The translations under genes and the position numbers were made by a program. The notes beneath the pieces were generated by a model. That model had not been told where the DNA came from and did not search any database. It saw nothing but the letters and a program-made list of their open reading frames with translations. This document shows positions 6,484-25,932 of a DNA stretch of 25,932 nt, piece after piece (the stretch's first letter is position 1; the number at the start of each line of letters is the position of its first letter). Source of the stretch: a virus (Duplodnaviria; Caudoviricetes); IMG/VR virus record IMGVR_UViG_3300038313_000220, positions 1-25,932 of that record, one strand, 5' to 3'.

Positions 6484-6504
6484 TACAACACCCCCTTATT
6501 AAAT

Positions 6505-6972: not shown

Positions 6973-7025
6973 AGAAGTTTCTTACTCTCCATTTTCTTTC
7001 ACTCGCATCCGGAACTAGTTCCGAT

Positions 7026-8258: not shown

Positions 8259-8742
8259 TTTGATTATCTGTGTCAAATCAGAGATACCTATACCAACGTC
8301 GTTTTGGCAAGCTGTCAGGAAAAGCGGATGAAAAAGGAACTGGTTTTGCATACCCTGCATGCTGCTAAGGGGCGCTGGAATTTACCGACTGAAGTGATTT
8401 TTCACAGCGACCGCGGCAGTCAATACACGTCACAGGCCGTTAAAGAACAGATTTCCAGCTATAGTTGGAAGCAAAGTTTTTCACGACTCGGCACTCCGGG
8501 AGACAATGCCTGGAGTGAAAGCTTTTTCTCCATTCTCAAAAAGGAAATCATCCACTGGCATTTCTATCCCACAAGAGAAGCTGCCCGCCAAGCCATGAAT
8601 ATATCGAGGCCTTTTACAATTGCAGCCGTGCTCAAAAGCGGCTGGGTTATCTTGCTCTCATTCAATTCTTATCTCGCTGGTTTCAGTTGAGCCATCCGCT
8701 TAGTGCTTAACATTTTTTCCATTTCTCTGTTGACAACCTGTT
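8258..8742 (+). mobile_element. IS3-family remnant: 3' part of OrfB integrase core (frameshifted) plus right end
   Basis: IFHSDRGSQYTS, GTPGDNAWSESFFSILKKE; frameshift near 8596 into EYIEAFYN..R.QKRLGY, stop 8708-8710; IR-like tccatttctctgttgacaacctgt; exact end uncertain. Confidence 0.88.
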
Positions 8743-8758
8743 TATGCTATTATAGAAT
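8730..8758 (+). promoter_or_regulatory. Hybrid promoter (IS-end -35 plus flanking -10) facing the phage operon
   Basis: TTGACA (8730-8735), 17 bp, TAGAAT (8753-8758); also TGCTATTAT at 8745-8753. Confidence 0.6.
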
Positions 8759-8832
8759 TTCAGGAAACGGAAGCAAGGGAGCCTTGCAAAAGGTACTTCC
8801 ATGTTCATGCATTTTCCTCCAATCCATCCGCC

Positions 8833-9048
8833 GTGTCGGAATGCTGCTGCGGGCCTATGAGCCGGTTCAGGGGCATTAACCCTGCTGACTCCAAACTCTT
8901 CTTAAAACACTTTTTTGGCAGCCGAGAACAGAGCGGCGATGTGCCGGCGGTAAAGGAACTGCGGAACCTGATTGGTGAGGATGATGCAAATACTGCTGAC
9001 TCCGGTCAACTGGAGGAGCTGATAAAGGGGTTGCAAGAAGATGAGTAA
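8833..9048 (+). pseudogene. Terminase small subunit C-terminal remnant (chimeric 5' end)
   Basis: Position directly before and overlapping terL; last ~40 codons GDVPAVKELRNLIGED...LEELIKGL are TerS-C-like; upstream part has no RBS and looks unrelated. Confidence 0.55.
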
Positions 9049-10309
9049 AGTCTATTCTCAAAAGCAGCAGCAGCTTCTCCAGATCTGGCAGCAGCACAAG
9101 CTCCGGCGCATCAATCTACTGGAAGGCTCCGTCCGTTCCGGAAAGACATGGATCAGCTTAGTACTTTGGGCGTTCTGGGCAGCAACAATGCCACAGGAAA
9201 GTAATTACCTGATGGTAGCAAAGACACTCACTTCCCTACGCCGTAACTGTCTGGACCTGCTGCAAGCATTGGTTGGCAAGAATCATTTTTCCTACTCTTT
9301 GAGTAAAAAAGAAGGCTGCCTATTTGGGCGGCTTATTTATTTGGAGGGTGTCAACGATGCGCGTGCAGAAAGTAAGATTCGCGGCATGACACTGCAAGGT
9401 GCTTACTGTGACGAACTAACGCTATTCACGGAGGACTTCTTCTCTATGCTGCTGTCCCGTCTCTCCTGCCCCGGCGCAAAGCTGATTGCCACAACAAACC
9501 CAGACAGCCCACAGCACTGGCTCAAAGTCAAGTACATTGACCGCTGTGCGGAGTTGGATATGCTCTGTATGCAATTCCTGATTGATGACAACCCCTATCT
9601 TGACCCGGCATACATTGCAAATCTGAAAAAAGAATACTCCGGCGTCTATTATGACCGTTTCATTCTTGGCCTTTGGAAAACGGCAGACGGCCTGATTTAC
9701 CGGCAGTTTGCAGACAATCCCGAGCACTGGATGGTTGATACGGTGGACAAAAAGCAGATTGATTTTATCAGCATCGGCATTGACTTTGGCGGCAACCGCT
9801 CCCTAACCACATTCGTTGCCACCGCTGTCATGCGTAATTACAGTGAATTAGTTGTGCTGCGGGACTACCACATTGCAGGCAAGAAAGGCGAAATTGACGC
9901 TGATCGAATGGCACGCGAATTTGTTGGATTCATTCGGAAACTTCAGGCAGACTATCCGGGCATCTACATTCGTTACTGTTTTGCCGACTGCGCAGAACAA
10001 TACTTGATTACGACCCTGCGCAAGGCATTACTGGCCGCTGGGCTGAATATCCCGGTTGGTGACAGCGACAAAAACGCTATTACTTCCCGCATTATCTGCA
10101 CCAACACGCTGCTGAACACCGACCGGCTGCACCTTATGCGCGGCTGCGATTTGCTGCGGCGCGGATTAGAGGGCGCTGTATGGGACAGCAAAGCGGCGCA
10201 AAAAGGTGAGGACAAGCGACTGGATGATTTCACATCCGACATTGATATTCTGGATGCGTTCGAGTATTCCTTTGAACGTTTCATGCGAAAGCTGGTGAAA
10301 ACAACATAA
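9041..10309 (+). CDS. terL: Terminase large subunit (PBSX-family-like)
   Basis: Walker A EGSVRSGKT, Walker B AYCDE, coupling motif TTNP, nuclease GIDFG and DILDA. Confidence 0.95.
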   Translation: MSKVYSQKQQQLLQIWQQHKLRRINLLEGSVRSGKTWISLVLWAFWAATMPQESNYLMVAKTLTSLRRNCLDLLQALVGKNHFSYSLSKKEGCLFGRLIYLEGVNDARAESKIRGMTLQGAYCDELTLFTEDFFSMLLSRLSCPGAKLIATTNPDSPQHWLKVKYIDRCAELDMLCMQFLIDDNPYLDPAYIANLKKEYSGVYYDRFILGLWKTADGLIYRQFADNPEHWMVDTVDKKQIDFISIGIDFGGNRSLTTFVATAVMRNYSELVVLRDYHIAGKKGEIDADRMAREFVGFIRKLQADYPGIYIRYCFADCAEQYLITTLRKALLAAGLNIPVGDSDKNAITSRIICTNTLLNTDRLHLMRGCDLLRRGLEGAVWDSKAAQKGEDKRLDDFTSDIDILDAFEYSFERFMRKLVKTT

Positions 10310-11799
10310 TGGACAATTTGGAAACAGCACCGATTCTGCAATACCTCAACAAGAAGTATGGTACAAACCTACAAACACAATATTACAATCATATCCGGCT
10401 TTGGAAAGCATGGTGGCGTGGTTATGTAAAGTCATTCCACCGTTACTATGAGCTGGATGGTGAACGGAAGCTGGAACGCAAACTGTACAGCATGAAGATG
10501 GCAAAAAAGGTCTGCGAGGACTGGGCTTCCATCCTGCTAAATGAAAAGACAGAAATTGCGATTGCGGATAAAGCAAGCAGTACCTTTGTGCAGGGGGAAA
10601 AGCAGGTCACTGGTGTACTGGGCGAAAATGATTTTTGGAGCAAAGGCAATGAGCTGGTGGAACGTGCCTTTTATAGCGGAACGGGTGCTTTCGTACTGCG
10701 GCTGCTAAATGCTCCGGTCAATGCTTCCGGCACGATTCTGCGCGGCCCCGAGTCCCGCATTGCCATCACCTACCTTGATGCGCCATACATCTTCCCTATC
10801 TCCACGCAGGCCGGGCACATCACGGAAGCCGCCTTTGCATCTGTGCAGCTCGTACATGGCAAATATCAAATTTACTTAGAGGAACACACACGCGGCAAAG
10901 ACGGGCTGTATGTTATCAGCAATGAACTGTTTGCCTATGACGACGGTTCCTTCCGACCTCTGCCCCTGCCGGATGGGATTGCACCCGTTATCAATACGGG
11001 TTCCGCCATACCGTGGTTCTCCATCATTGAACCGAACCTTTCCAACAACCTCCCCTACTCCAATGGCATGGGGCTTTCCATCTATGCCAACGCCATTGAT
11101 GAACTGCAGAATGTGGATATTGCATTTAATAACTTCGTCAAGGACTTTAAGCTTGGCGGGAAAAAAGTTTTCTATGATCAGTCGCTGACCCGACACAATG
11201 AAAAAGGCGCGGTCATTACACCGGACGACATGGCACAGCAGTTGTTCCTCACCGTCCCCTCCGGCAATGGTCTGGACGACGATAGTAAGCTTCCCCTGCA
11301 TGAGTACAACCCCGCCCTGCGGGTGGAGGAAAACACAAAGGGCATTCAGGCGGCACTTGACTATCTCAGTTTCAAGTGTGGGCTTGGCACCCGATTTTAC
11401 GCGTTCAACGGCGGTACCATCCAAACCGCCACACAGTACACCGGCGAGCGGCAGGACCTTGTTCAGAACGCCAATAAGCATTACATTGTGGTGGAACGTG
11501 CTCTGCAAAATCTTGTGCGCGGCATTCTCTATATTGGCCGGGAATTTTTAGGCCAGCCAGTGGACGAAAACTGCGATATTGAAATTCAGTTTGAAGACTC
11601 CTATATCATTGACAAGGAACAGGAACGTGAACGGGACCGGCAGGACGTGCGGGATGGTCTGATGCAGAAATGGGAATACCGTGTCAAGTGGTACGGAGAA
11701 AACGAGGAAGAAGCGAAAGCTGCACTGGGACCCGCGGTGGATCTGCAAAATCCGTTTGGATTTAAACAACAGCAGGGTGATGGCAATGCTGACACCTAA
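10309..11799 (+). CDS. Portal protein (SPP1 Gp6/A118-like)
   Basis: 496 aa after TerL; GLSIYANAID, TATQ, FEDSYIIDKE, GLMQKWEYRVKWYGE motifs. Confidence 0.93.
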   Translation: MDNLETAPILQYLNKKYGTNLQTQYYNHIRLWKAWWRGYVKSFHRYYELDGERKLERKLYSMKMAKKVCEDWASILLNEKTEIAIADKASSTFVQGEKQVTGVLGENDFWSKGNELVERAFYSGTGAFVLRLLNAPVNASGTILRGPESRIAITYLDAPYIFPISTQAGHITEAAFASVQLVHGKYQIYLEEHTRGKDGLYVISNELFAYDDGSFRPLPLPDGIAPVINTGSAIPWFSIIEPNLSNNLPYSNGMGLSIYANAIDELQNVDIAFNNFVKDFKLGGKKVFYDQSLTRHNEKGAVITPDDMAQQLFLTVPSGNGLDDDSKLPLHEYNPALRVEENTKGIQAALDYLSFKCGLGTRFYAFNGGTIQTATQYTGERQDLVQNANKHYIVVERALQNLVRGILYIGREFLGQPVDENCDIEIQFEDSYIIDKEQERERDRQDVRDGLMQKWEYRVKWYGENEEEAKAALGPAVDLQNPFGFKQQQGDGNADT

Positions 11800-13375
11800 G
11801 TATCTGGAACACTGCTCCGACGATATTGTAGAACTGTATAGTGAACTTGACCAGTTGATTGTCCGGGACGTTGTGCGGCGCATCATGAAAACCGGCCGTG
11901 TTACCACAACTGCCGCATGGCAAATCCTGCGGGCACAGGAATCCGGGACGCTGTATGAAGAAGTCATTGCCGAAGTTGCCCGCTGTACCAACGCATCCGA
12001 ACAGCAAGTGCAAAAGGTCTTTCGGGAAGCGGGGCTAAAAGCGATTGCTTATGACTGTACAGTCTATACGGCTGCCGGGCTGTCTCCCCCACCGCTGTCT
12101 ATGGCCCCTGCCGCCATGCAAGTGCTGAATGCCGGACTGCAAAAGACTAGCGGCTATCTGCAAAACCTCACTAAGACAACTGCCAACGGCGCGCAGCAAG
12201 CGTACATACACGCGGCAACAATTGCAGAAATACAGGTGGAAAGCGGCGCGTTTGATTATACCTCTGCTATCCGCAATGCAGTACGAGCAGCCATAGAAGG
12301 CGGTGACTGGGTAACCTACCCCAGCGGCCACCATGACCGGCTGGACGTTGCCGCACGACGCGCGGTGCTGACTGGCACCAATCAAACCGCGGCAGAAATA
12401 TCACTTTCTTATGCGGATGACATGGACTGCGACCTTGTCGAAACTACTGCTCATGCAGGCGCACGGCCATCTCATCAGGTCTGGCAGGGACAGGTATTCA
12501 GCCGTTCGGGCAAAAGCGACCAGTATGACGATTTTGAGAGTGCCACCGGATATGGCACCGGCGCTGGCCTTTGCGGCTGGCACTGCCGGCACAGCTTTTT
12601 CCCATTTTATGAAGGACTTTCAGAACGTGCTTACCCGAGCGACAAGTTAAAAACTTATGAAAACCAGGCGGTGCAGTATAACGGTGAAAAAATCAAATAC
12701 TATGATGCCACCCAGCGACAGCGTGCAATGGAGCGGGCAATCCGTGACAGCAAGCGAAAAGCCGCAGGATATGATGAAGCGGTAAAATCCGCAAAGGATG
12801 GGCCCACTGCCAAAGCCATGAAGCAGGAGTTTGATGCTGCCGCCGTCCGGCTGAAACAGCAGGAAGCGAAGCTGAAAGACTTCTGCAGTCAAACCGGCCT
12901 TTACCGCCAGCGTGAACGGGAGCAAGTCGTTGCCACGCGTGAAAATGCGGCACACACAACTGTTTCTTTTGGCCGCAGTCAGGCACAAAAAGCAGTACAG
13001 GCTGCAAAGGTACAGCAGCGGCTTGACTCTGCAAACAAGGAGTTGAACAGTCTGCGCGAGAGTGGTACAATTAGAGTAAAAGGGACGCTTGTAAAGGCTC
13101 CTGACGTACCAAACGCTCTAACTTTTAGCGGTCATGCTTTGGATAGACTGTCTGAGCGCGGTATGACTTTAAAAGATGTGAAACGCATCACGAAATCTCC
13201 TAAATTTGCAATCCGACAGCGCAATGGTATGCAGCATGTTTACTATTCGGAAACCGGATTTATTGCAATAAAATCAGATGGCACCGTGTCTTCTATTGGT
13301 CATCTTGATGAAGGAGGGAAAAAAGTATTGGAGGTGGCAAAAAAATATGGATTTTATCACGAATCCACAAAATGA
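11786..13375 (+). CDS. Phage minor capsid protein (Phage_min_cap2/MuF-type) with C-terminal toxin-like extension
   Basis: Likely start MLTPKYL at 11786; HAGARPSHQVWQG, GLCGWHCRHSFFPF, QRAMERAIR, RQREREQV; then ~150 extra residues ending in FSGHALDRLSERGM...YYSETGFIAIKSDGTVSS. Confidence 0.9.
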   Translation: MLTPKYLEHCSDDIVELYSELDQLIVRDVVRRIMKTGRVTTTAAWQILRAQESGTLYEEVIAEVARCTNASEQQVQKVFREAGLKAIAYDCTVYTAAGLSPPPLSMAPAAMQVLNAGLQKTSGYLQNLTKTTANGAQQAYIHAATIAEIQVESGAFDYTSAIRNAVRAAIEGGDWVTYPSGHHDRLDVAARRAVLTGTNQTAAEISLSYADDMDCDLVETTAHAGARPSHQVWQGQVFSRSGKSDQYDDFESATGYGTGAGLCGWHCRHSFFPFYEGLSERAYPSDKLKTYENQAVQYNGEKIKYYDATQRQRAMERAIRDSKRKAAGYDEAVKSAKDGPTAKAMKQEFDAAAVRLKQQEAKLKDFCSQTGLYRQREREQVVATRENAAHTTVSFGRSQAQKAVQAAKVQQRLDSANKELNSLRESGTIRVKGTLVKAPDVPNALTFSGHALDRLSERGMTLKDVKRITKSPKFAIRQRNGMQHVYYSETGFIAIKSDGTVSSIGHLDEGGKKVLEVAKKYGFYHESTK

Positions 13376-13544
13376 AGATGAGCAAGTGCTCTGCCCTATT
13401 TGGAACAAAAAAATTGCCGCCGGTCTGTGCTTTGACATCTCCAATATTGGTAATGACAGCTTGAATTTGCCGCCAAAGCTTCGTCCGCCATGTGGTTGGC
13501 AAAAAGCACACGAAATATGTGATAAATGTGAAAATTACAATTAA
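13347..13544 (+). CDS. Small Cys-rich putative immunity protein (65 aa)
   Basis: GGAGGT RBS, ATG 13347, overlaps the toxin-like gene end by 29 bp; CPIW...LCFDI...CGW...ICDKC; function inferred from position. Confidence 0.65.
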   Translation: MDFITNPQNEDEQVLCPIWNKKIAAGLCFDISNIGNDSLNLPPKLRPPCGWQKAHEICDKCENYN

Positions 13545-13618: not shown

Positions 13619-13629
13619 CATATTAACTT

Positions 13630-13707
13630 GCCCCTTCCGGCCGGGCTTAAAATGCCGGGACCGCATGGCGCAGAGTGGCTGCGCATTTATAAAATAAATC
13701 TATGCGG
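13630..13707 (+). other. Structured RNA leader of the scaffold gene (predicted pseudoknot plus three-way junction)
   Basis: gccc/gggc interleaved with ccggc/gccgg; ccgcat/atgcgg enclosing gcgcag/ctgcgc and atttat/ataaat. Confidence 0.5.
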
Positions 13708-13720
13708 CAAGGAGATTATC

Positions 13721-14320
13721 ATGGATATTAAAGAACTGTTCGGAGACAAATCCCTCACCTATGCCGACTTTGAAAAGGCCGCTGGTGAGCACAAAGCAAA
13801 GTTCGTTGACCTATCAGAGGGCGGCTACGTGGACAAAGGCAAGTTTGACGGGAAGGCAAATGAGCTAAAAACCGCCAACGACACCATTGCAGATCTGCAG
13901 GGCAAGGTGAAAACCTTTGACGGTGTGGACGTTGAAAAGCTGAAGCAGGACGTCAAGGACGCACAGACAAAGTATGACACCGATATCGGTAATCTGAAAA
14001 AGTCCAGTGCGGTCAATCTTGCATTGATGGGAGCGAAGGCACATGATGTCAAGGCCGTATTACCTTTTGTCAACATGGATGCCGTAACTGTGGATAACGA
14101 CAAAGTGATGGGACTTGACGAACAGGTACAGAACTTAAAAAAAGACAAGGCTTTTCTATTTGAGGATGAAAAGCCCGCAGAAGATAGCCAGACCGCCGGA
14201 CATGTCAGCAGTGCTGGAGAGCATCACGACTCCCCCGACACTAGCCTTGATACATTTGCTGCGGCGGCCTACAAAGCCGCGGGTATTTCTGCCCCGGAAG
14301 CAACAGGAGGTAAAGAATAA
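13721..14320 (+). CDS. Capsid scaffolding protein (Phage_GP20-like)
   Basis: AAGGAG RBS with ATG 13721; acidic/Lys-rich coiled coil, GLDEQVQNLKKDKAFLF; precedes the capsid gene. Confidence 0.88.
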   Translation: MDIKELFGDKSLTYADFEKAAGEHKAKFVDLSEGGYVDKGKFDGKANELKTANDTIADLQGKVKTFDGVDVEKLKQDVKDAQTKYDTDIGNLKKSSAVNLALMGAKAHDVKAVLPFVNMDAVTVDNDKVMGLDEQVQNLKKDKAFLFEDEKPAEDSQTAGHVSSAGEHHDSPDTSLDTFAAAAYKAAGISAPEATGGKE

Positions 14321-15201
14321 TGCCAAATTCGATTGAATATGCACAGAAATTTATGCCCGTTATTGACGGCCTTTACAAAGCCGCGTCCATTACCAATGGC
14401 ATGGATGCCGCCACAAAGCCCGATTTCACCGGCACGAATGAAGTAAAAATTATGAAAGTAGAATCTTCCGGCCTTGGCGATTACAGCCGGCAGAACGGAT
14501 ATCCGCAGGGAAATACAACCGTTGCATGGGAAACGCTCAAACTGACGGAAGAGCGCGGAACCGAACTGAGCATTGACCGTATGGACAACGAGGAAACGCT
14601 GGGTATGGCCTTTGGTGCAGTAACTGGTGATTTCATGCGCGTCCATGTCGTGCCGGAACTGGATGCCTATCGTTTCGCAAAATATGCCAGCGCAACAGAT
14701 ATTCAGAAAGCCCCTCCGGTTGCTCTGACAAAAGACACCATCATTCCCGCTATTGATGAAGCGGTCCGTGCTTTGGACAGCGCCGAAGCGGCTGCAGAAG
14801 GCCGCCGACTCTATGTCAACAGCGACCTGAAGCCGGTGCTGGCACAGGCGCTGAATCGTCAGTATGGCAGTGACAGTGCGGTAAATAATCAGCTGCAGAA
14901 TTACAATGGCCTGCCGATTGCTTATGTCCCCCCGACGCGTTTCTACACGGCCATTACGCTCAACAGCGGCGCCGACAAATTTGGCTTTGAAAAAGCCACG
15001 GGTGCGGCAGCAATCAATTTTATGCTGATTGACCCGAAAGCCATCACGCAGGTCGTGAAGTTTGCGCTGCCAAAGATTTTCGATCCGGACACCAACCAGA
15101 AGAATGATAGCTGGCTGTTTCAGTACCGCGAATATCACGATGCCTTTGTGTTGGATAACAAGGCTAAAGGTGTTTACCTGCACGCACAGCCGACTGCTTG
15201 A
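14320..15201 (+). CDS. Major capsid protein
   Basis: 293 aa; GLGDYSRQNGY, IDRMDNEET, VVPELDAYRFAK, YHDAFVLDNK; position. Confidence 0.92.
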   Translation: MPNSIEYAQKFMPVIDGLYKAASITNGMDAATKPDFTGTNEVKIMKVESSGLGDYSRQNGYPQGNTTVAWETLKLTEERGTELSIDRMDNEETLGMAFGAVTGDFMRVHVVPELDAYRFAKYASATDIQKAPPVALTKDTIIPAIDEAVRALDSAEAAAEGRRLYVNSDLKPVLAQALNRQYGSDSAVNNQLQNYNGLPIAYVPPTRFYTAITLNSGADKFGFEKATGAAAINFMLIDPKAITQVVKFALPKIFDPDTNQKNDSWLFQYREYHDAFVLDNKAKGVYLHAQPTA

Positions 15202-15212
15202 GGTGATGTGAT

Positions 15213-15356
15213 ATGTTGATTCAAAATGGCGGGATTTACCGCAATATCGACAGCAAGGATTTTCTCCGCTATGAAGGGATGGGCTACAAAGCAGTAAAAA
15301 GCGCTGCCGAACCAACAGCCAAATCAGGACAACCCGCGAAACCGAAAGGAAAGTGA
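15213..15356 (+). CDS. Small capsid-associated hypothetical protein (47 aa)
   Basis: GAGGTG RBS; MLIQNGGIYRNIDSKDFLRYEGMGYKAV...KPKGK*; fills the gap and overlaps the next gene; below ORF-track cutoff. Confidence 0.7.
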   Translation: MLIQNGGIYRNIDSKDFLRYEGMGYKAVKSAAEPTAKSGQPAKPKGK

Positions 15357-15742
15357 TTTGCTTGTATGCCGATTATGACTACTATCAGAGCACCTACCAC
15401 GGCACTTTGATTCCTGAGGCTGACTGGCCACACCGTGAACGGCAAGCGGCTGCCTTTATCGACCATATTACGTTTGGGCGGCTGCGGCATGGCTGGGAAA
15501 TTACTACTGATGCGCAAAGCGCTGTCTGCGCTGTGGCCGAAAAGTTACAGTTGCTTGACACAAACATGGGCATGCAAGTACAAGCTGCACGTGCAGCGGG
15601 TATTTCCACAGAAAATACAGACGGTTATTCCGTATCCTTCAAAAGTTCGGCAGAGGCACAGCAGGCACGAAACTCTGCGCTACTGGATGCGGCGAGTTTA
15701 TGGCTTCCAGCGAATGAACCGCTGCGGTATGCGGGGGTGTAA
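15353..15742 (+). CDS. Head-tail adaptor/connector protein
   Basis: YADYDYY, AVCAVAE, SENTDGYSVSF-like motif, LRYAGV end; position after capsid. Confidence 0.8.
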   Translation: MICLYADYDYYQSTYHGTLIPEADWPHRERQAAAFIDHITFGRLRHGWEITTDAQSAVCAVAEKLQLLDTNMGMQVQAARAAGISTENTDGYSVSFKSSAEAQQARNSALLDAASLWLPANEPLRYAGV

Positions 15743-15745
15743 CAG

Positions 15746-16096
15746 ATGCTCACAAATGCCGACTGCACTATTTATCACAAGGTGTATGACAGGGCGACGC
15801 ACCTCGACCGCTGGGAACGCACACAGTACCGCGGTGTCAACTGGTATGCCAAACAGGCAGCCACAGTCGGCGAAAGCGGCTTAATGGCGGCTGATACGCT
15901 GACCGTGCGCATTCCCGCCTCTGAATCGGATACCATTCCTGCCGCTGTGGGTGACATCATTGTGCGCGGGTTATTTGATACCGACATCACCCAGCCGAAA
16001 GAGCTTGACCAGCATGAACACTATACCATCACTGCCGTACGGGATAACCGCCGCGGCAGTCTTTTTATGCAGCATTGGAGGATTGAGGGAAAATGA
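15746..16096 (+). CDS. Head closure-type neck protein
   Basis: 116 aa, MLTNADCTIY...GDIIVRG...HWRIEGK; synteny. Confidence 0.7.
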   Translation: MLTNADCTIYHKVYDRATHLDRWERTQYRGVNWYAKQAATVGESGLMAADTLTVRIPASESDTIPAAVGDIIVRGLFDTDITQPKELDQHEHYTITAVRDNRRGSLFMQHWRIEGK

Positions 16097-16903: not shown

Positions 16904-16905
16904 AA

Positions 16906-17694: not shown

Positions 17695-17698
17695 CAGG

Positions 17699-17721
17699 AA
17701 GCCCCAGTATAGGGGCTTTTT
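17699..17721 (+). terminator. Intrinsic terminator after the tail tube gene
   Basis: aagcccc-agtata-ggggctt-ttt. Confidence 0.75.
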
Positions 17722-17779
17722 ATGTCCGCCTCCTGCGCATGAACAGAAAGCGGGCTAAACTTTTTTTTGGAGGTACGTC

Positions 17780-18151
17780 ATGAGTAAAATTACAATTAAG
17801 GATACAGAACTTGACCTTGACATTTACGACGCGGACGAAAATGAGCGGGTACTTTCCGCTATTCAAAAGGCCCAAAAGGCTTTGACGGCTATCGACGGTG
17901 GGAATGACGACACCTCCGGTGGAATCCGCGATGCCTGCCATGCTGTATTTGAATGTTTTAATACTATTTTCGGAGATGGGACCGACCGTAAGATTTTTGG
18001 AAACAAGTGCAATCTGCGGGACGCTATGCGGGCAATCTTCCAACTGTGTGATGCGGTAAAGGTGCAGCGGGATGAATTTGAAGCCGAAACACAGCAGTTC
18101 ACCGCAAAATACAGTCCGAACCGCGCAGCACGCCGAGCGAAGAAAAAATGA
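17780..18151 (+). CDS. Tail assembly chaperone
   Basis: 123 aa; FNTIFGDGTDRKIFG, NRAARRA C-terminus; position. Confidence 0.8.
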   Translation: MSKITIKDTELDLDIYDADENERVLSAIQKAQKALTAIDGGNDDTSGGIRDACHAVFECFNTIFGDGTDRKIFGNKCNLRDAMRAIFQLCDAVKVQRDEFEAETQQFTAKYSPNRAARRAKKK

Positions 18152-18723
18152 ACCTGCTGATTGATGCCGCACCAGAATCGGTAGCCATCAATGACTGTCA
18201 GGTACCTATCCACACCGACTTCCGGATATCCATCCTGTTTGAACAGCTCATGCTGGACCGCACGGTGCCGGATAGTGAAAAGCTGCCGCTGGCACTGAAT
18301 CTGTACTATCCGGACTGTCCTCCTGATTTGTCTGCCGCTGTGAAACAAATGCTTTGGTTTTACCGCTGTGGCAAGCCTAAAGACAAATCACTTGATTCGG
18401 ATAACAGCGGCCGGAAAATTTATGACTATGATTATGACGACGGCTACATTTTTGCGGCCTTTCTAGCGGATTACGGCATCGACTTAGAGGCTATACCCTA
18501 TCTGCACTGGTGGAAGTATAAGGCACTGTTCGACTCCCTGCGGGTAGAAAATAAGTTCTGCCGTATTCTCAACTATCGCGCTGCCGATACCAGCGAAATG
18601 AAAGGAGAACAGCGGCGGGCTTATGAACGTATGAAAAAGCTCTATGCCCTGCCCCGCTCCGCTGATGAACAGGAAAAGCTGGACGATATTGAAGAAAAGT
18701 TACGCCACGGCGGGAAACTGTGA
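18148..18723 (+). CDS. Bacteriophage Gp15-family tail protein/chaperone
   Basis: TDFRISI, DDGYIFAAFLADYGIDL, YLHWWKYKALF; ATGA overlap with the upstream gene. Confidence 0.88.
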   Translation: MNLLIDAAPESVAINDCQVPIHTDFRISILFEQLMLDRTVPDSEKLPLALNLYYPDCPPDLSAAVKQMLWFYRCGKPKDKSLDSDNSGRKIYDYDYDDGYIFAAFLADYGIDLEAIPYLHWWKYKALFDSLRVENKFCRILNYRAADTSEMKGEQRRAYERMKKLYALPRSADEQEKLDDIEEKLRHGGKL

Positions 18724-18738
18724 GGAGGTGAAAAAGAT

Positions 18739-21699
18739 TTGGCTTATGATGGCAGTATTATCATTGACACAAAAATCAATGGGAAAGGCATACAAGAAGG
18801 ACTCGACAGTATCAGCAATTCTGCGGACAGCAAAATTGAAGGCACCGGACAAAAGGTATCTGCTACCAGCAGTGATATGAAAAATAATATCAACAGTGTG
18901 GGCGGCACGGCATCCCAAAATCTTGAAAGCACCGGAAAAAAGCTGACTTCTACCGGCACAAAAATGACACTTGGCATTACAATGCCACTTGGTGTTGTAG
19001 GTAAAAAAGTAGTTGAAACCGGCGCTGATTTTGAAGATACCATGTCTCAAACAGCCGGCGCTTTGGACATACCCATGTCAAGCATGGGGAGCTTACGTAG
19101 TCTTGCTCTTAAAATGGGCGCAGATACCATGTTTTCTGCCAAAGAAGCCGGTGAAGCAATGGTGGAACTGGCAAAAGGCGGCATGAGTGAAGCACAAATT
19201 AAGGGCGGTGCTTTAAAATCCACTATGGATCTGGCAGCGGCATCTGGAATGAACTTAGGAGACTCCGCAAATGTTGTTGTGCAGTCCATGGGCGCTTTTG
19301 GCCTATCCGCCGACAAATCTGCATTAGCTGCAAATGCGTTGGCGGGTGCAGCCGCTGCATCTTCCACAGATGTACGGCCGCTAACAGAAGGTCTTTCCCA
19401 ATGCGGCGCACAAGCGCATTTGGCCGGCTGGAATATACAGGATACGACTGCTGTTTTGGGCATGTTTGCAGATGCCGGTGTAAACGGCGCAGATGCAGGT
19501 ACTTCCTTAAAGGTTATGCTGCAAAGACTCGCTTCTCCGACTGGAAAAGCTGCAAAGCTTATGAAAGCCTATGGAATTAATGTGCGAAATTCGGATGGCA
19601 CTATGAAAAGTGCCTCGGAAATTGCCCAGATTCTACATGATAAGCTTGGAAAATTAAGCCCAGCTACACGAGACGCCGCTTTGCAAACCATTTTTGGGAC
19701 TGATGCAAGCCGTGCTGCTGCTATTATGATGAATAATGGCGCAAAGGGCTTGGCCAAGTACACAAAAGCAACTTACGATCAATCAAGTGCATCCAGACAG
19801 GCTAAAGCCCGTATGGGAGATACACGATATGCCTTGGAACAAATGAATGGGTCTATTGAAACCGCGGCAATTGCTTTGGCTACAATTCTTAATCCGGTGG
19901 TTGCAAAAGTTGCTAAAAAAATTCAAGATTTAGCAAATAAATTCACTGCGTTACCCAAGCCCGCGCAAAAGGCTATTTTAATTATCGCTGGAATGGCTGC
20001 TGCCGCAGGACCAGCACTTGGCGCAATTGGCAAAATGGCAACTGGAATCAGCGCAATTTCTAAACTGTTCTCTCACTTTGGCACTGGTGCCGCAGCCGTC
20101 TCCGGCGTTTGCAAGAAACTTGGTACGGTATTTAAAACGGTTGGCTCTGGCATCGGTTCCGCAGCAAAGGTGCTCGGCTCGGGATTGAAAGTGGTTGGCT
20201 CCGGGTTATTGAAAGGTATTAAAGGAATCGGTACTGCTGTTAAGGGACTTTTTACTTTGCTGGCTGCAAACCCCGCCGCATTGATTGTTATAGCGATTGC
20301 GGCTATCGTGATTGCTCTTATTGCCGCCTATACGCATTGCAAAGCCTTCCGCGACGGTGTGAACGCTGTGTTTGGCACAATCGGGAACTTCTTTAAAACG
20401 ATTGGCACTGGAATTGCAAACTTCTTTTCTAAGACCCTCCCGGCGGCACTTGCAGGGGTGGGAAAGTTCTTTAGTTCTATTGGGTCCAGCATCGGAAATT
20501 TTGTGACGAAAACAGTCCCTTCCGCTTTCAGAGCTCTGCCTGGAATTGTGGGCGGAGTATGGAATAAAGTTCATTCCGGCGCTTCCTCTGCATGGTCCAA
20601 CATTTGTAATGGAATTACTGGATTTGCCAAGAATATCAAAAGCAATGTAGTAGGAGCGTTCAATGCTCTAAAAGGTAATGTTTCCGGCATATGGAACAAT
20701 GTTCATTCCGCTGCTTCCTCCGCATGGAACGCCATCCATTCCACAATTTCTAATAAGGCGAATGATATTAAAAATAAGGCCATTTCCACTTTCAATAACC
20801 TAAAATCCGGAGCTTCTAATATCTGGAATCAAATGCACAGCGGCGCCTCTTCTGCATGGGGCACTATCCATTCAACCATTTCTTCAAAAGCAAACAGCGT
20901 TAGGAACAGCGCCATCTCGGCCTTTAACCAATTGAAAAGCGGTGCTTCTGGAATATGGAATTCCGTTCATAGCCGGGCATCAAGTGCTTGGTCGGGAATC
21001 AGCGGAACGGTTGGGAACTTTGCAAACAGCGCCCGAAACAAAGCTGTGGGGGCATTTAATTCTCTGCGCTCCGGTGTCAGCGGTGTGATGGGAAGGATCA
21101 GCCCGATTATCCGAAACGGCTTTAACGGTGCAATTGGATTCCTTTCTTCCCTTCCCGGAAAAATGTTCCACTGGGGCAGCGAAGCAATCGGTCATCTGGT
21201 GAGTGGAATTCGCAGTATGATAGGCCATGTTGGAAAAGCAGTTGGTGATGTTGCCAACAAGATTAAATCCTTCCTGCATTTCTCGGTTCCGGATGAAGGA
21301 CCGCTGCGGGATATTATGGACTGGCCGCGCGATATGATGCAGCAGTACGGCGGTGGTATCACTTCCAATATGCGATATGTTACGGATGCAGTTTCAGACG
21401 TTGCAGGAAATATGGTGCTACGGCCGAATGCTGGTTTCATTCATCGTATGGTATCGGATATGTATGCAGCAGTCGGTGCAGAATCCGCTAATGTCGCCAC
21501 TCAGTTTTCAGAATATTCGTCTTTTGCTGCCGTGCAGTCGGCACCGCATGTCAGTACAACCGTACAGCCAGCCCCTGTCACGGTACAGACTGACGACCGG
21601 CCTATCGTAATGGACGGGAAAACAGTTGGCCGAGTGCTGGCTCCCCACATCAATGAGGAATTTGGCAAAAACGACATTAAAGTAAAGCGAGGCGGTTAA
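18739..21699 (+). CDS. Tail tape measure protein (TP901-type core)
   Basis: 986 aa Ala/Gly-rich; FSAKEAGEAMVELAKGG, AGTSLKVML, hydrophobic segments, W/F repeats, LHFSVPDEGPL. Confidence 0.95.
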   Translation: MAYDGSIIIDTKINGKGIQEGLDSISNSADSKIEGTGQKVSATSSDMKNNINSVGGTASQNLESTGKKLTSTGTKMTLGITMPLGVVGKKVVETGADFEDTMSQTAGALDIPMSSMGSLRSLALKMGADTMFSAKEAGEAMVELAKGGMSEAQIKGGALKSTMDLAAASGMNLGDSANVVVQSMGAFGLSADKSALAANALAGAAAASSTDVRPLTEGLSQCGAQAHLAGWNIQDTTAVLGMFADAGVNGADAGTSLKVMLQRLASPTGKAAKLMKAYGINVRNSDGTMKSASEIAQILHDKLGKLSPATRDAALQTIFGTDASRAAAIMMNNGAKGLAKYTKATYDQSSASRQAKARMGDTRYALEQMNGSIETAAIALATILNPVVAKVAKKIQDLANKFTALPKPAQKAILIIAGMAAAAGPALGAIGKMATGISAISKLFSHFGTGAAAVSGVCKKLGTVFKTVGSGIGSAAKVLGSGLKVVGSGLLKGIKGIGTAVKGLFTLLAANPAALIVIAIAAIVIALIAAYTHCKAFRDGVNAVFGTIGNFFKTIGTGIANFFSKTLPAALAGVGKFFSSIGSSIGNFVTKTVPSAFRALPGIVGGVWNKVHSGASSAWSNICNGITGFAKNIKSNVVGAFNALKGNVSGIWNNVHSAASSAWNAIHSTISNKANDIKNKAISTFNNLKSGASNIWNQMHSGASSAWGTIHSTISSKANSVRNSAISAFNQLKSGASGIWNSVHSRASSAWSGISGTVGNFANSARNKAVGAFNSLRSGVSGVMGRISPIIRNGFNGAIGFLSSLPGKMFHWGSEAIGHLVSGIRSMIGHVGKAVGDVANKIKSFLHFSVPDEGPLRDIMDWPRDMMQQYGGGITSNMRYVTDAVSDVAGNMVLRPNAGFIHRMVSDMYAAVGAESANVATQFSEYSSFAAVQSAPHVSTTVQPAPVTVQTDDRPIVMDGKTVGRVLAPHINEEFGKNDIKVKRGG
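20560..21087 (+). repeat. Four tandem 132-bp (44-aa = 4x11) repeats in the tape measure gene
   Basis: Trp codons at 20560, 20692, 20824, 20956, each starting WNxxHSxASSAW...FNxLxxxxSxx. Confidence 0.9.
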
Positions 21700-21700
21700 T

Positions 21701-22399
21701 TTGCTTGGCATTAAAATCGGTGATAAGCATACCTATCAAGACTGGGGGCTGCGTCTGCTGTCTTACAGTATCGGCATGCCGGAACCGCAGATGAAAACCA
21801 TTGAAGTGCCGGGCATGAGCAGCGTGCTGGATCTGACCGAAGCACTGACCGGCACAGTCCCCTACAAGCGGCGCACACTGTATTTTACTTTTTCCCTGCG
21901 GGATTTACGCTATGAAAAATGGCAGTCGGTATACTCGGAAATTGCGAACTACTGCCACGGCCAGCGGATGCGGATTGTGCTGGACACAGACCCCGGCTAT
22001 TACTATGACGGCCGCTGCACCGTGTCTTCCTCAAAAGATAACAATGTGGTTTCCGATGTCAGTATCTCTATAGACGCAGAACCGTTTAAACATGAGCTGT
22101 CCTCCACGGTAGAGCCGTGGCAATGGGACGGTTTTAATTTCATTACCGGCGTTATCCGTGACTATGGCGATATTCAGGTAAATGGCAGCAAATCCATGAC
22201 GTTAGTCGGATTCAGCCGGCCGGAAGTGCCGACCTTCACCTGCTCTGCTGCTATGCAGTTGACCATTGGCGGCAACACCTATTCCCTGCCTGCCGGTGAA
22301 TTTCAAAACTCCGACATTATTATTCCGTCGGGTGAAACACCCATTACACTGACCGGCACCGGCACCGTATCCATTTTGTTGAAGGGAGATTACCTGTAA
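21701..22399 (+). CDS. Distal tail protein (Dit)
   Basis: IEVPG...LDLTEALTG.VPYKRR, DPGYYYDGR, AEPFK; position after tape measure. Confidence 0.85.
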   Translation: MLGIKIGDKHTYQDWGLRLLSYSIGMPEPQMKTIEVPGMSSVLDLTEALTGTVPYKRRTLYFTFSLRDLRYEKWQSVYSEIANYCHGQRMRIVLDTDPGYYYDGRCTVSSSKDNNVVSDVSISIDAEPFKHELSSTVEPWQWDGFNFITGVIRDYGDIQVNGSKSMTLVGFSRPEVPTFTCSAAMQLTIGGNTYSLPAGEFQNSDIIIPSGETPITLTGTGTVSILLKGDYL

Positions 22400-24579
22400 T
22401 GTACAAAGTATTGCTGGACGGTAAGCCTATTTATGATCCGTTGATTGGCATTGCACTGACCGACCCGACTGTGGAACTAGCAGAAGGAAAGTCTGGCTCA
22501 TTTACCTGCGGCATTCCACCCGGCAATCCCGGATATGGAAAAATAAAAAAGCTGGTGTCCGTAATCGAGGTGCTGCAGGATAACGACAGCCTGTTTGTCG
22601 GACGCGTGCTGTCCGCTGAAAAGGATTTCTATGGTGTCGAAACCATCACTTGTGAGGGAGAACTGGCCTATCTTCTAGACAGCATCCAGCGGCCGGCCGA
22701 ATATCACGACATAACGGTGCGCGGATTCTTGCAGACACTGATTGATAATCATAACGCACAGGTGGACGAAGCAAAGCAGTTTGAAGTGGGTGAAGTTACT
22801 GTCACCGATTCAAACGACAGCCTGCACCGTTACACCAATTGGGAAACCACACTGGATGACATTAACGATAAGCTGGTATCACGGCTTGGCGGACACATCC
22901 GCATACGCCACGCAGACGGACACCGGTACCTTGACTATCTGGCTGATTTTGACAACACAAATACACAAACGATTGCTTTTGGCGAAAATCTGCTGGACTA
23001 CACGGAGAACACCACAGCAGATGATTTAGCGACCTGCGTAATCCCACTGGGCGCCGCCATTGAAAACCAGACAGACGACCCGCAGGCGCTCCAAAAGTAC
23101 ACCACCTGCGCAGATGCCAATGGCGGCAGCGATTATGTGTGTGACTCTGATGCGATTGCTAACTATGGACGAGTTTTTAAGGTTGTCCATTTTGACAATG
23201 TAACACTGCCCGCAAATTTGAAAACAAAAGGTGAACAGTACCTGCATGACACACAGTTTGAAAAAATGGCATTAACTGTTACCGCTGTGGACAAACACCT
23301 GCTGTCCGGTGATTTTGAACGCATCAAGGTAGGTGACCGCATTCGCTGCCTGTCCAAGCCGCACGGTATGGACCGGTTTTTCCCTGTCACCAAGCGGAGC
23401 ATTCACCTTGACGCCCCAGAGCAGGACACCATCACGCTGGGCGATACGGTATCTGTCAGTTACACAGAACGTGCCAACAAAGACAATGATGCGATTTATC
23501 AGCAGATTGACCATATTCCCCCCCAATCTGCCACACTAAAATTGGCGCAGGACAATGCTACCGCCTTGCTGACAGCTGCCACAACAGGGCATGTCGTCAC
23601 CCGTGCAAATGAAATCCTGATTATGGATACGGATGATACGAAAACTGCCCAGCATGTTTGGCGCTGGGATGTGAATGGCTGGGGGTACAGCAGCACCGGC
23701 ATTGACGGCCCATACAAGCTCGCGGCCACCATGGACGGTGCAATTGTAGCGGACTGTATCACTGCCGGAACAATGAGTGCAGAACACATCCGCACCGGCA
23801 CTCTTAAAAGTCAGGATGATGTTGTTAATTTTGACCTAGACAATGGGTCTCTGACAATTAATATGCATATATCAAAATACTTGTCCAGTTCAAAAATGGT
23901 ACTTAATGGTTCGGGGTTAAGGGTGTTTGATGCTGCTCAAACAAAGCCACAGATGACATTAAGCTGTATTGTCTCAGGAGATACTTTTAATCCAGATGGC
24001 AGTCGGGTTAACTTGGGAGGGACCATTGACATCCCATATTATGACACCAAAGGAAATAAGCTTTCGTCAATTTGGATAGAGGGGGACTATATTTCAATTG
24101 ATGGTCCAACTGGCCTTCCCATTGCTAAAATTTCTTCAGATATGTTATTGGTTGGAAGTCAATCAGCACTTCTGTTCTATGCTGGCCGGGCTGTTAATAC
24201 CGGGGATAATCATGCATCTTTCACTCTTGGGGATGGCACAGAACCGGTATGGATTTTAGGTCCATCCGATGACCCTTCCGGTAGGGATTGGACCATCCTG
24301 TTTGAAAGTGGTTCCTTAAATGATATTGTCATTGGTCGTGATGTATCAATGAACAATAATACTATTTCTCGTGTTAAACTATCTTCTCCAAAGATTGAAA
24401 ATGCCGAATTTGATGGGGCACCCAGCTTTCCGGACGGAATCACAATTGGCGGGGAAACATTGGATGGAAAAAATGATGGCGTAACGCAGAAGTTAAACCT
24501 ATTTGGCGCCGGAGAAAACGGCAGCACAAGACAGCTTGATGTGAAAAATGGACGCATTACTAGCGTGCAGGATCTTTAA
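22399..24579 (+). CDS. Tail-associated/baseplate hub protein (Tal, prophage endopeptidase-tail-like)
   Basis: CEGELAYLLDS, FGENLLDY, VWRWDVNGWGYS, ATMDGAIVAD..TAG; position after Dit. Confidence 0.87.
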   Translation: MYKVLLDGKPIYDPLIGIALTDPTVELAEGKSGSFTCGIPPGNPGYGKIKKLVSVIEVLQDNDSLFVGRVLSAEKDFYGVETITCEGELAYLLDSIQRPAEYHDITVRGFLQTLIDNHNAQVDEAKQFEVGEVTVTDSNDSLHRYTNWETTLDDINDKLVSRLGGHIRIRHADGHRYLDYLADFDNTNTQTIAFGENLLDYTENTTADDLATCVIPLGAAIENQTDDPQALQKYTTCADANGGSDYVCDSDAIANYGRVFKVVHFDNVTLPANLKTKGEQYLHDTQFEKMALTVTAVDKHLLSGDFERIKVGDRIRCLSKPHGMDRFFPVTKRSIHLDAPEQDTITLGDTVSVSYTERANKDNDAIYQQIDHIPPQSATLKLAQDNATALLTAATTGHVVTRANEILIMDTDDTKTAQHVWRWDVNGWGYSSTGIDGPYKLAATMDGAIVADCITAGTMSAEHIRTGTLKSQDDVVNFDLDNGSLTINMHISKYLSSSKMVLNGSGLRVFDAAQTKPQMTLSCIVSGDTFNPDGSRVNLGGTIDIPYYDTKGNKLSSIWIEGDYISIDGPTGLPIAKISSDMLLVGSQSALLFYAGRAVNTGDNHASFTLGDGTEPVWILGPSDDPSGRDWTILFESGSLNDIVIGRDVSMNNNTISRVKLSSPKIENAEFDGAPSFPDGITIGGETLDGKNDGVTQKLNLFGAGENGSTRQLDVKNGRITSVQDL

Positions 24580-24590
24580 GGAGGGATAAT

Positions 24591-25538
24591 ATGGCAAACG
24601 TATCAGACAAGGTCGCACAAATTCGACAAGCGGTCTATGGCAAAGACGTACGTGAAAGTATTGCCTCCAGCATTGAGGCAATGAATGACGAAAGCAAATC
24701 GGCATATGATACCGCCCAGCATGCCCCATGTATCAGCTCTGCGACGGGAAATTGGGAAATTTGGAACATCACAGCAAATGCCTATACGGACACTGGCAAA
24801 CCTGCTCGTGGTGAGACCGGTCCGCAAGGTCCACAGGGCGAGAAAGGCGATACCGGCGCGACAGGCCCGCAAGGTGAAAAAGGCGATACTGGTGCTCCAT
24901 TTGTCCTTGGCACGACGATTTACCCAACACTGGCAGACCTGCAGGCAGCCTATCCCAGCGGCGACACACACGCGTACTATGTTGGTACTGCCGAACCTTA
25001 TTCGATTTATCTCTGGCATGGCAACGCATGGGGCCGTTTTAGTGCTTCCGGACAGGATATGGACAAATATGTGCAGTCCGTCAATGGAAAAACACCCACG
25101 AATGGCGCAGTTGACCTGACAACAGCCGATATTACCGATACTGCTGAAAAACGGTATACCAGTGACACAGAAAAAACGAATCTGTCAACAGCGATACAGT
25201 CTGCAAAAATAGGAGATACAGAAGTACCAAAATCCGGAACGGAATTGCAGCTGCCATCATACCCGTCTGGTGTCCAATTGTTTAGTGCCCCCCTCCCTAC
25301 CTCTGGATGGAACACTTCCGCGCCATATTCGCAAACGGTAAGCATTTCCGGCTTACCGGACAAGGACGGGGATTTCCGGCTTGCACCCACAGCCGCGGGA
25401 GCGCCAACGGCGGCAGAAGAAACCGCATTTTCCTGCATTACCGGCAGCACGGGCACCGCAGGCAGCATCACATTTAACTGCCGCGATACAAAGCCGGACA
25501 CCGATATTCATGTAAGATTGGTGGTGTATGATACATGA
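24591..25538 (+). CDS. Tail fibre/upper-baseplate protein with collagen-like segment
   Basis: IRQAVYGKDVRESI N-terminus; ten G-X-Y triplets at 24810-24899; VQSVNGKT; GWNTSAPYSQTVSISG. Confidence 0.8.
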   Translation: MANVSDKVAQIRQAVYGKDVRESIASSIEAMNDESKSAYDTAQHAPCISSATGNWEIWNITANAYTDTGKPARGETGPQGPQGEKGDTGATGPQGEKGDTGAPFVLGTTIYPTLADLQAAYPSGDTHAYYVGTAEPYSIYLWHGNAWGRFSASGQDMDKYVQSVNGKTPTNGAVDLTTADITDTAEKRYTSDTEKTNLSTAIQSAKIGDTEVPKSGTELQLPSYPSGVQLFSAPLPTSGWNTSAPYSQTVSISGLPDKDGDFRLAPTAAGAPTAAEETAFSCITGSTGTAGSITFNCRDTKPDTDIHVRLVVYDT

Positions 25539-25565
25539 GTCAGTTCTTTCCGGTAGGGAAACACA

Positions 25566-25733
25566 GCAGCGTAGGCAGCGCTTATGGCACATAGCTATAG
25601 CGTTGGCAGCAGCGGTATTGATGGCAAATTTGGTGCCGGTACTGACAGTGCGGTTCGTACATTCCAGCGCAGCAAAGGGTTGTCTGTTGATGGACTGTCT
25701 GGCAAAAACACTTTCGCTGCGCTGTGCAGATGA
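25566..25733 (+). pseudogene. Endolysin remnant: peptidoglycan-binding domain only
   Basis: Frame not in ORF track: AA*AALMAHSYSVGSSGIDGKFGAGTDSAVRTFQRSKGLSVDGLSGKNTFAALCR* (PG_binding_1 pattern DG.FG..T..AV..FQ...GL.VDG..G..T); TAG at 25572-25574; no catalytic domain. Confidence 0.85.
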
Positions 25734-25743
25734 GGTGACAAGT

Positions 25744-25856
25744 GTGGGAGCAATAAATATAGGTTTGCCATTGCAGTAATTGGTTGTTTTATCGGTCTTG
25801 CCGGCTGGCTGAGCGGACGGGATAAGAAGATTTTAGGTGATGGTGAGTGGAAAGGA
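25744..25856 (+). pseudogene. Lysis-module small membrane protein (holin-associated), frameshifted and IS-interrupted
   Basis: GAGGTG RBS with GTG; after a frameshift near 25766 reads AIAVIGCFIGLAGWLSGRDKKILGDGEWKG, then breaks at the IS end. Confidence 0.6.
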
Positions 25857-25932
25857 TGTAATGGTCAAGCATTTTTGTAACGCTACTGTCTAAATTGACT
25901 CAATCCATACCTTGTCTCATAAGGCGTCCGAT
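25857..25932 (-). mobile_element. Right end of a probable IS3-family element (continues beyond the window)
   Basis: Terminal TGTAATGGTCAAGCATTTTTGTAAC; minus strand reads RTPYETRYGLSQFRQ* (stop 25883-25885), like a transposase C-terminus. Confidence 0.65.

Follow-up and report, generated by a model that had tools for sequence, protein, structure and literature searches.

A probable cryptic siphovirus prophage remnant trimmed by IS3-type elements and deletions, with structural genes likely kept open by recombination with sister phages

Introduction

Does a well-preserved set of phage head and tail genes, lying between damaged edges, mean that the bacterium carrying it makes use of the particle? 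This question is raised by virus record IMGVR_UViG_3300038313_000220, a single virus contig of 25,932 nt, the whole of which was analyzed here and is called the window. A first-pass annotation had seen in its terL-to-fibre module a candidate domesticated particle, either a gene transfer agent (GTA) or a device delivering a capsid-linked toxin. We consider it likely, at a probability of about 0.6, that the locus is instead a cryptic siphovirus prophage remnant, trimmed by IS3-type insertion sequences (IS) and by deletions, whose interior has been kept open by recombination with sister phages. The host is a fermenting bacterium, and the remnant is chromosomal and belongs to one host species. The good condition of the module does not by itself imply that the host uses these genes as a gene-transfer or killing particle. 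Comparison with GenBank phages matched eight records, none at more than 8% coverage, and a literature search found no published description of this element.

Results

The same locus is present in the UBA4871 metagenome-assembled genome (MAG; G001) over positions 4638 to 25876, and 15 of the 23 listed runs contain at least half of the sequence words of positions 7000-16900, five of these 15 being possible sources. The left junction was found in all four DNA runs examined (three studies) at a depth level with the flank, and the right junction is carried by L230; the expectation that the module would occupy the same site in related strains was thus borne out by G001 and the four DNA runs. By contrast, the module was absent from all 11 congener genomes, for which completeness was not reported (G001 being the only positive among the 12 genomes of the genus); capsid identity was at most 31%, and only scattered pieces of other prophages were seen there. 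Conservation by vertical descent across related species, as expected of a GTA, was therefore found in 0 of 11 congeners. A search with the terS junction pattern gave one record in the genome contigs and none in the viral contigs, a collection which may omit near records.

The copies differ from one another by blocks. Comparison of the window with G001 revealed 476 differences, all of them in three tracts totalling 5,782 nt, or 35% of the module, and none across the other 15,457 nt. L150 shows the same 476 differences (possibly the same data), and L151 has six changes in the fibre gene; the six tracts seen so far add up to 7,510 nt, or 46% of the module. The donor type of tract 1 is represented by P0010/P0204/P0197: G001 TerL differs from that of the window at 31 of 421 residues and from P0204 at five, its portal protein differs from P0197 at one residue, and its TerS tail is that of the full-length proteins P0010 and P0012 (0 of 37 differences). 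Likewise, 12 of 14 changes in the MuF protein P0186 match P0183. Close full-length TerS homologs are numerous: among the 120 matches listed, about 20 have 85% identity or more. The ratio of nonsynonymous to synonymous divergence (dN/dS) in the tracts was 0.05-0.08 in nine of ten gene segments and 0.25 in one, with dS values of up to 0.89. Since a dS of this size cannot have arisen in place, the tract differences are imports. As a per-gene test of domestication, which had been proposed, dN/dS was consequently rejected: the low values describe blocks imported from sister phages and would mislead, and no usable private mutations are left. In the time taken to replace one third of the module, point mutation added fewer than about 2e-4 substitutions per site. 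If the edge lesions correspond to a few percent of neutral change, as the 4 of 78 nt separating the left IS end from a sister copy would suggest, the interior would have gone through many rounds of overwriting.

Chimeric assembly is an unlikely source of these patches, as tract 1 starts 12 nt from the junction. The junction and a patch lie on one X8 contig of 15,135 nt with a flat depth of 36, which argues against assembly mixing, and the occurrence of the same 476 differences in L132 and L150 was also counted against chimerism, although the two may be one data set. X8 and X15 lack cover beyond about 24190, which a filter or a different allele can explain.

Decay is distributed unevenly. The 1,001 nt of edge DNA contain three small lesions, whereas the 16,498 nt of the module, in which about 49 would be expected, have none; under uniform decay the probability of this asymmetry is 1.9e-4, a rough value as the lesions were chosen after looking. 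The asymmetry pointed out in the first-pass annotation is real, but the selection on particle genes read from it is not implied: recombination would restore open frames inside the module but has no access to the edges that were deleted, and because 5,782 nt have been replaced by sister-phage DNA among otherwise identical copies, recombination can explain the asymmetry without selection. G001 and L150 have lost 1 nt in the tape measure gene, whose product there stops at 588 aa. A shortened fibre (159 aa, three contigs) and a shortened tape measure (816 aa, one contig) are known as protein records, their breaks not having been observed in DNA. A tail-deleted version, with a skip of 4,995 nt (19725 to 24721) in X16 and X20 contigs that matches 376-aa proteins on 7+1+1 contigs, could not be placed as an allele of this locus (0 of 8 loci carry the skip) and may belong to a sister remnant. 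Its junction, in RNA-library contigs of two studies, has an ATG microhomology and is out of frame; sister-allele head genes are deep in the same libraries, and a second, tailless and possibly expressed remnant may exist.

The module itself consists of 18 open genes on the plus strand at 9041-25538, most of them separated by -29 to +15 nt, with three larger gaps of 85-176 nt (Table 1). Their order is TerL, portal, MuF2, a 65-aa gene, scaffold, major capsid, a 47-aa gene, adaptor, completion genes, tail tube, chaperones, tape measure, Dit, Tal and collagen fibre. The description of an intact virion-building operon therefore holds as far as open and coupled genes are concerned, but the set is incomplete: the gene that follows the fibre, 347 aa long in a whole prophage of congener G002, is reduced to a stub. 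The tail module is 73-74% identical in nucleotides to that of the G002 prophage. As had been stated, no integrase, repressor or replication gene was found among the 26 frames scanned with Pfam and PHROG profiles in the window, which ends inside the right IS; no tRNA was found in the window.

Table 1. Features of the 25,932-nt window, with coordinates and the evidence for each.
Feature	Position	Strand	Evidence or remark
Left flank, non-phage decayed conjugative-element DNA	2..8253	-	Pfam; paralogous copies in G001 contigs C19, C23
Methylase/SNF2 helicase, decayed	2-4816	-	Left flank; Pfam
IS3-family 3' remnant: rve fragment and right inverted repeat	8255..8739	+	PF00665, E 1.6e-12; ends of related IS copies
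Hybrid sigma-70-type promoter: TTGACA (IS end), 17 nt, TAGAAT (phage late promoter)	8730..8758	+	Predicted
Native late-promoter -10 region and leader	8740..8937	+	Upstream activator gene and direct repeats replaced by IS
Presumed TerS remnant, residues 87-123 only	8935..9048	+	Position and shared tail; no named profile match
Recombination tract 1, G001 lineage, 277 coding differences	8949..11091		Starts 12 nt after terS junction
Terminase large subunit, 422 aa, intact	9041..10309	+	PF03237, PF04466, phrog_2
Portal, 496 aa	10309..11799	+	phrog_533, E 6e-99
MuF2 minor capsid, 529 aa, variable C-terminal domain ~residues 425-529	11786..13375	+	PF06152
MuF-region tracts in X8, X13, X15, L230	11949..12574
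65-aa gene, putative immunity for MuF C-terminal domain	13347..13544	+	Co-varies with that domain
GP20-a cis-regulatory RNA motif ahead of scaffold gene	13627..13718	+	Rfam RF02991, 72.8 bits
Scaffold, major capsid, 47-aa gene, head-tail adaptor, three head/tail completion genes	13721..16903	+	phrog_194, 422, 541, 3366, 556, 3266
Tail tube, two chaperones, tape measure (986 aa), Dit, Tal (726 aa), collagen-repeat fibre (315 aa)	16906..25538	+
Tracts 2 and 3, G001 lineage	19089..23208 (19089-19981, 20463-23208)		Includes tape measure 1-nt deletion
Swapped Tal C-terminus and fibre start in L230	23814..24806		X8, X15 contigs stop at same place
Stub MSQFFP of last tail-region gene (~6 codons)	25535..25552	+	Alignment with G002 prophage
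Endolysin remnant, peptidoglycan-binding domain only	25553..25733	+	PF01471 (PG_binding_1), E 6e-13; TAG at 25572
97-aa lysis-cassette gene, 5' fragment, weakly XhlA-like, IS-cut	25744..25856	+
Second IS3-type element, right end, multi-copy	25857..25932	-	Assemblies break here; differing flanks and high depth at 25857

At the left edge phage DNA is joined to the remnant of an IS whose related copies end five bases past a conserved TTGAC. The remnant is itself decayed: it is truncated at its 5' end, differs at 4 of 78 nt from a sister copy and carries a 4-nt deletion at 8595, which confirms the frameshift suspected near 8596. As in IS fusion promoters in general, a -35 box inside the IS end and a -10 box in the target DNA lie within 16-18 nt of each other. 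The resulting site at 8730-8758 is the best (11 of 12 positions) of 29 promoter-like sites, a number which is itself no evidence as 26.5 are expected by chance. The proposal that the module has its own IS-made promoter is correct for the -35 box, but the -10 box is native to the phage late promoter: positions 8745-8827 are 89% identical to the stretch that directly follows the activator gene in the C24 prophage of G001, positions 8828-8937 match the L022 and L024 leaders, and the C24 counterpart has four TGCCGG-like repeats ahead of TATAAT. Judged by this alignment, the IS removed the late activator and its repeats and placed TTGACA 17 nt before the phage's own -10 box. In the sections concerned, repeats of this sort are described as binding sites of Ltr activators, lying directly after the activator gene as in the C24 prophage (PMC3753634), and right ends of IS3 elements as bearing outward -35 hexamers in the right inverted repeat that combine with a resident -10 (PMC9330008). 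The present fusion differs from those IS3 promoters in taking the place of activator repeats at a phage late promoter, an arrangement for which no published case was found in the literature search.

Three of three other host copies of the IS read TTGACG at the -35 position. All differences between the window and the nearest IS copy (L134) fall within the last 25 of 79 nt (8715-8739), including the G to A change yielding TTGACA, and may reflect either promoter tuning or a different IS variant. A hairpin in the leader (8857-8895; CAGGG-7-CCCTG within GAGCCGG...CTGACTC, then CA) is conserved in the leaders of L022, L024 and G002; it looks like a tRNA acceptor plus T arm, for which ARAGORN and Rfam make no call; folding of the leader was no better than that of shuffled sequence (z 0.24). 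Two further G001 prophages, a myovirus on C24 (L236) and a siphovirus on C8 (L271, L272), have nearly the same late activator; in the present assembly the terL of the myovirus is split over two frames.

Downstream of the leader, only codons 87-123 of a 123-aa terS gene are left, joined through the GGC microhomology at 8935-8937 to leader DNA that lies about 700 nt upstream in relatives. The deletion of the TerS N-terminus was thus confirmed, and the loss extends to one helix of a hairpin: in the model of intact TerS (predicted local distance difference test, pLDDT, 85) helices span residues 15-48, 54-62, 72-85, 89-99 and 108-122, so that the remnant has lost the long N-terminal helix and hairpin helix 72-85 and keeps the second hairpin helix and the C-terminal helix. 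The latter likely docks on TerL, and we infer from the model which helices oligomerise. A TerS without its DNA-binding part yet retaining the parts for oligomerisation and TerL binding, as in a GTA, is therefore not what remains. Starts of the remnant match AGGAGG at 1-3 of 6 positions only, leaving no good ribosome site. A fold search returned two unnamed phage proteins at E<0.001 and a terminase fusion at 3e-3. The idea that a terS elsewhere in the genome acts in trans found no backing, no cognate full-length TerS having been found in G001, an incomplete MAG. Three unrelated TerS bodies (L007:9538-10008, L009:7078-7509 and L039:102-557) end in a C-terminal tail, GQLE.L.KG, that is also found at window positions 8935-9048, and all are partnered by one TerL family; this suggests that DNA specificity may be swapped behind a fixed docking helix. 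The TerL of the window retains its ATPase and nuclease motifs, which presumably have their usual roles, and the label "PBSX family" on its cluster is a family name, not evidence.

With regard to the capsid-linked toxin, MuF2 follows the portal gene, has a variable C-terminus and is followed by a small co-varying gene, as in the MuF polymorphic toxins described for Firmicute temperate phages in the relevant part of PMC5576092. The C-termini and the small genes after them are exchanged among relatives. Different from the described toxins, the C-terminal domain has only weak matches to DUF4258, below the cut-off and in 11 of 20 members, and its function is a predicted one. Atlas leads for the tip scored 0.80-0.83, colicin E5-like RNases among them at 0.80; its profile had no match in PDB, and a single-sequence model (pLDDT 52) gave no fold match. 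The domain is likely an antibacterial ribonuclease and the 65-aa protein, encoded on 36 contigs, likely its immunity protein. Hence a toxin cassette is present, as had been claimed, but phage L023 with a full TerS has nearly the same MuF tip and an identical 65-aa gene; by this comparison the cassette is inherited phage cargo and nothing special to the locus.

At the right edge, the MSQFFP stub is fused to the peptidoglycan-binding fragment of the lysin, the remainder of the tail-region gene and the lysin catalytic domain having been deleted. The loss of the catalytic domain, the stop at 25572 and the frameshift suspected near 25766, here a 1-nt deletion near 25769 in the lysis-cassette fragment, were all verified, as was the statement that IS right ends face the module from both sides (8739 and 25857). 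We take the right IS to be of IS3 type from its motif. Its end at 25857-25864 has a TTGACC pointing back into the module, from which antisense transcription over the lysis remnant could start.

RNA data consisted of contigs from four RNA-library runs (shares 0.07-0.17) placed at 90% likeness, giving neither strand nor start nor level. These contigs are deepest over the 3' part of the portal gene, scaffold and capsid. They were rejected as support for expression of the locus as they represent sister alleles: the X16 capsid contig is allele P0143. A terL allele of 87% identity could not align at this threshold, and uncovered bins are no evidence of silence. X16, X17 and X20 have no cover over the bin of toxin tip and immunity gene.

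The left flank also holds an ArdC-like fragment and two small paralogous genes. Among its stops, that at 4817 counts as damage, a paralog being open there, and the one at 7910 interrupts a frame resembling the end of the 7026-7574 protein (judged by eye); the stop at 5117, in contrast, also occurs in a paralog and is not decay specific to the locus. An HTH-Fic gene (5572-6483) is intact within this decayed DNA and has deep RNA-library contig cover in X16-X18. A 21-22 nt repeat, CCGGAAC..GTTCCG, occurs six times (1480-7030), partly inside helicase coding DNA. The flank is patchy between strains, with an alternate allele at 7638-8253 (X13, X15) and a 259-nt skip at 6753-7013 (X8, X13, X17).

Discussion

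The locus descends from an ordinary temperate phage, has lost genes needed for progeny and occupies a fixed chromosomal site, with flat depth across flank and module, that IS and deletions have damaged. These traits are those of a cryptic prophage, and from the gene loss infectious progeny would not be expected. As the comparisons show, early genes, late activator and activator-binding repeats gave way to an IS3 element whose -35 box lies 17 nt from the phage -10 box; deletions took most of terS, the last tail-region gene and the catalytic domain of the lysin, and the lysis cassette was interrupted by a second IS. Within the one host species, the differences between copies come as kilobase-sized patches matching sister phages whose TerS is full-length. 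The hybrid promoter would free the late operon from activator control, which would have favoured loss of the lysis genes; lacking a working TerS, lysin or holin, the cell would probably form at most empty heads and tails. Sister phages would overwrite the interior by homologous recombination faster than point mutations accumulate, erasing lesions there and leaving the deleted edges beyond repair, and the element would act as a reservoir from which the local phage family exchanges structural alleles.

This reading builds on known relatives. Temperate siphoviruses of Oscillospiraceae with an A118-type portal and MuF2 (L023, L024/L241 and the whole G002 prophage) have the same gene order, leader, GP20-a RNA, MuF cassette and tail module at 73-85% nucleotide identity by module, and unlike the window they still have an activator, a full TerS, the last tail gene, a lysin and holins. 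Temperate and defective prophages commonly form mosaics with each other, and 12% divergence is tolerated by Rad52-like recombinases (PMC3945230); the portions of PMC3945230 and PMC6379469 on such defective prophages report IS-damaged, non-excisable remnants sharing mosaic tracts with active relatives at 85-97% identity. In the present case DNA flows into the remnant, in tracts of 0.1-2.7 kb that make up as much as 35% of the module between otherwise identical copies, and a whole late operon is open behind a hybrid promoter.

Several observations weigh against recombinational upkeep as the full account. Every near-identical copy that reaches the junction has the same locus, and positions 11092-19088 are identical in the window and G001, so that turnover throughout the interior is an extrapolation. 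That temperate and defective prophages exchange DNA is established, but the assays described in PMC3945230 ran from prophage to phage, and flow into a chromosomal remnant at the present rate is not what the assays covered there addressed. The intact tape measure allele is on 19 contigs and the 588-aa form on three, maybe from one sample, and no clear lesion was found in head genes among the listed cluster members; selection may pick the recombinants. The exact spacing of 17 nt and the TTGACA box also resemble tuning.

The strongest competitor, which we regard as possible though improbable, is intracellular protection: the host would retain an expressed operon whose immunity gene blocks the MuF toxin of sister phages, or whose surplus scaffold, capsid or TerS tail spoils assembly of a superinfecting relative, toxin-immunity addiction adding stability and no released particle being needed. 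The near-consensus hybrid promoter, the abundance of sister phages in the same habitat and the identity of the 65-aa gene with that of L023 and on 36 contigs would fit, as would the retention of just that part of TerS which is common to three unrelated TerS bodies paired with this TerL family. The lesion-free head genes, lesions so far being confined to tail genes, weakly favour it as well; however, this contrast stems from few lesions, most of them not placed at the locus. Moreover, the X16 capsid contig is a sister allele and no transcript is tied to the locus, the bin of toxin tip and immunity gene is uncovered in three RNA libraries, the TerS remnant has poor ribosome sites, and immunity would save one small gene, not 16 kb.

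We think it rather unlikely that a GTA-like or killer particle is in the making, with TerL packing host DNA at random behind a TerS devoid of DNA recognition into heads loaded with MuF toxin. Here the host would capture sister-phage alleles to keep a toxin-loaded head and tail fresh, retarget by swapping Tal tips, drive constitutive expression from the promoter created by the IS insertion and borrow lysin and holin from co-resident prophages for release. Head-tail genes without replication, integration or repressor genes in the window, a TerS lacking its N-terminal part and lysis located elsewhere do parallel GTA anatomy as outlined in PMC11841831, and the swapped C-terminus of Tal in L230 recalls tailocin fibres (PMC13195805). 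Two other prophages of G001 come with terminases and an activator of their own; the contig of one also has a lysin and a holin-like gene, and these prophages could lend lysis. The lysin and holins seen in G001, an incomplete MAG, belong to such other prophages, no family-wide lysin search having been made. The closest parallel is the Faecalibacterium candidate GTA of a related host family (10.1101/2024.11.15.623857), for which the preprint, as far as its account of this element goes, gives a 10.5-kb structural operon in 12 of 12 genomes with no replication genes, a TerS without DNA-binding domain, a separate lysis operon, and particles with packaged DNA of 8.4-8.9 kb, together with GTA-like packaging in Oscillospiraceae. 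The window, by contrast, has 16.5 kb, occurs in one species, has its TerS cut inside the hairpin and is known from its genes alone. RcGTA-type agents share the head-tail cluster and a truncated TerS, but in the account of PMC11841831 that TerS still oligomerises and binds TerL, production is host-regulated and dedicated accessory loci exist; in the window hairpin helix 72-85 is gone and translation signals are poor. A cognate full TerS is missing from the incomplete MAG, a tail-region gene is deleted and the tape measure frameshifted in one lineage, tape measure and capsid have ordinary phage sizes, and the locus sits in decayed conjugative-element DNA without a link to a host regulator.

PBSX and tailocins such as carotovoricin also retain structural genes and a variable receptor-binding end, but keep lysis genes and a locus that the pertinent section of PMC13195805 describes as genus-wide for carotovoricin; the window has neither its own holin and endolysin, the catalytic domain being deleted and the cassette frameshifted and cut, nor a complete tail in all carriers. 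The proposal of a GTA-like or toxin-delivery particle is partly supported, but the element is not filed as GTA, PBSX or tailocin, as its TerS, its conservation among species, its lysis genes and its tail do not agree with these classes. A trio of a short scaffold-like gene, a gene for a 281-aa capsid-like protein (30% identical to that of the window) and a sigma-factor-like gene recurs in three species of the genus (G001:C1:102333-105983, L235; G008:C2, L232; G009:C1, L233); it may be a satellite or a conserved capsid locus, and possibly a better GTA-like lead than the window.

Least probable is a rearranged complete prophage or a very recent amputation, with the missing genes beyond the right IS and the module open because it is young: every assembly examined does end in or just before that IS and strains are nearly identical outside the tracts, but terS, the last tail gene and the lysin were lost by internal deletion and not displaced, no second copy of terS or of the holin-side remainder was seen in G001, an incomplete MAG, and the junction is not fresh, as it spans several studies and the edges, including the left IS with its truncation, 4-nt deletion and 4 of 78 changed nt, carry accumulated lesions.

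Taken together, the likely upkeep by sister-phage recombination bears on how defective prophages are read. Open frames and low dN/dS in such elements are commonly taken as domestication, and this locus offers a measurable alternative; screens for GTAs or domestication should mask recombination tracts before dN/dS is interpreted. At the same time, one locus combines steps toward the origin of a GTA, namely lost early genes, an activator-free promoter, a truncated TerS and detached lysis, and if the particle explanation were true, a GTA or killer particle would have been caught at birth in a Gram-positive fermenter. As the locus sits in a family with reported GTA-like packaging, it would be a cheap test case once a carrier strain is cultured.

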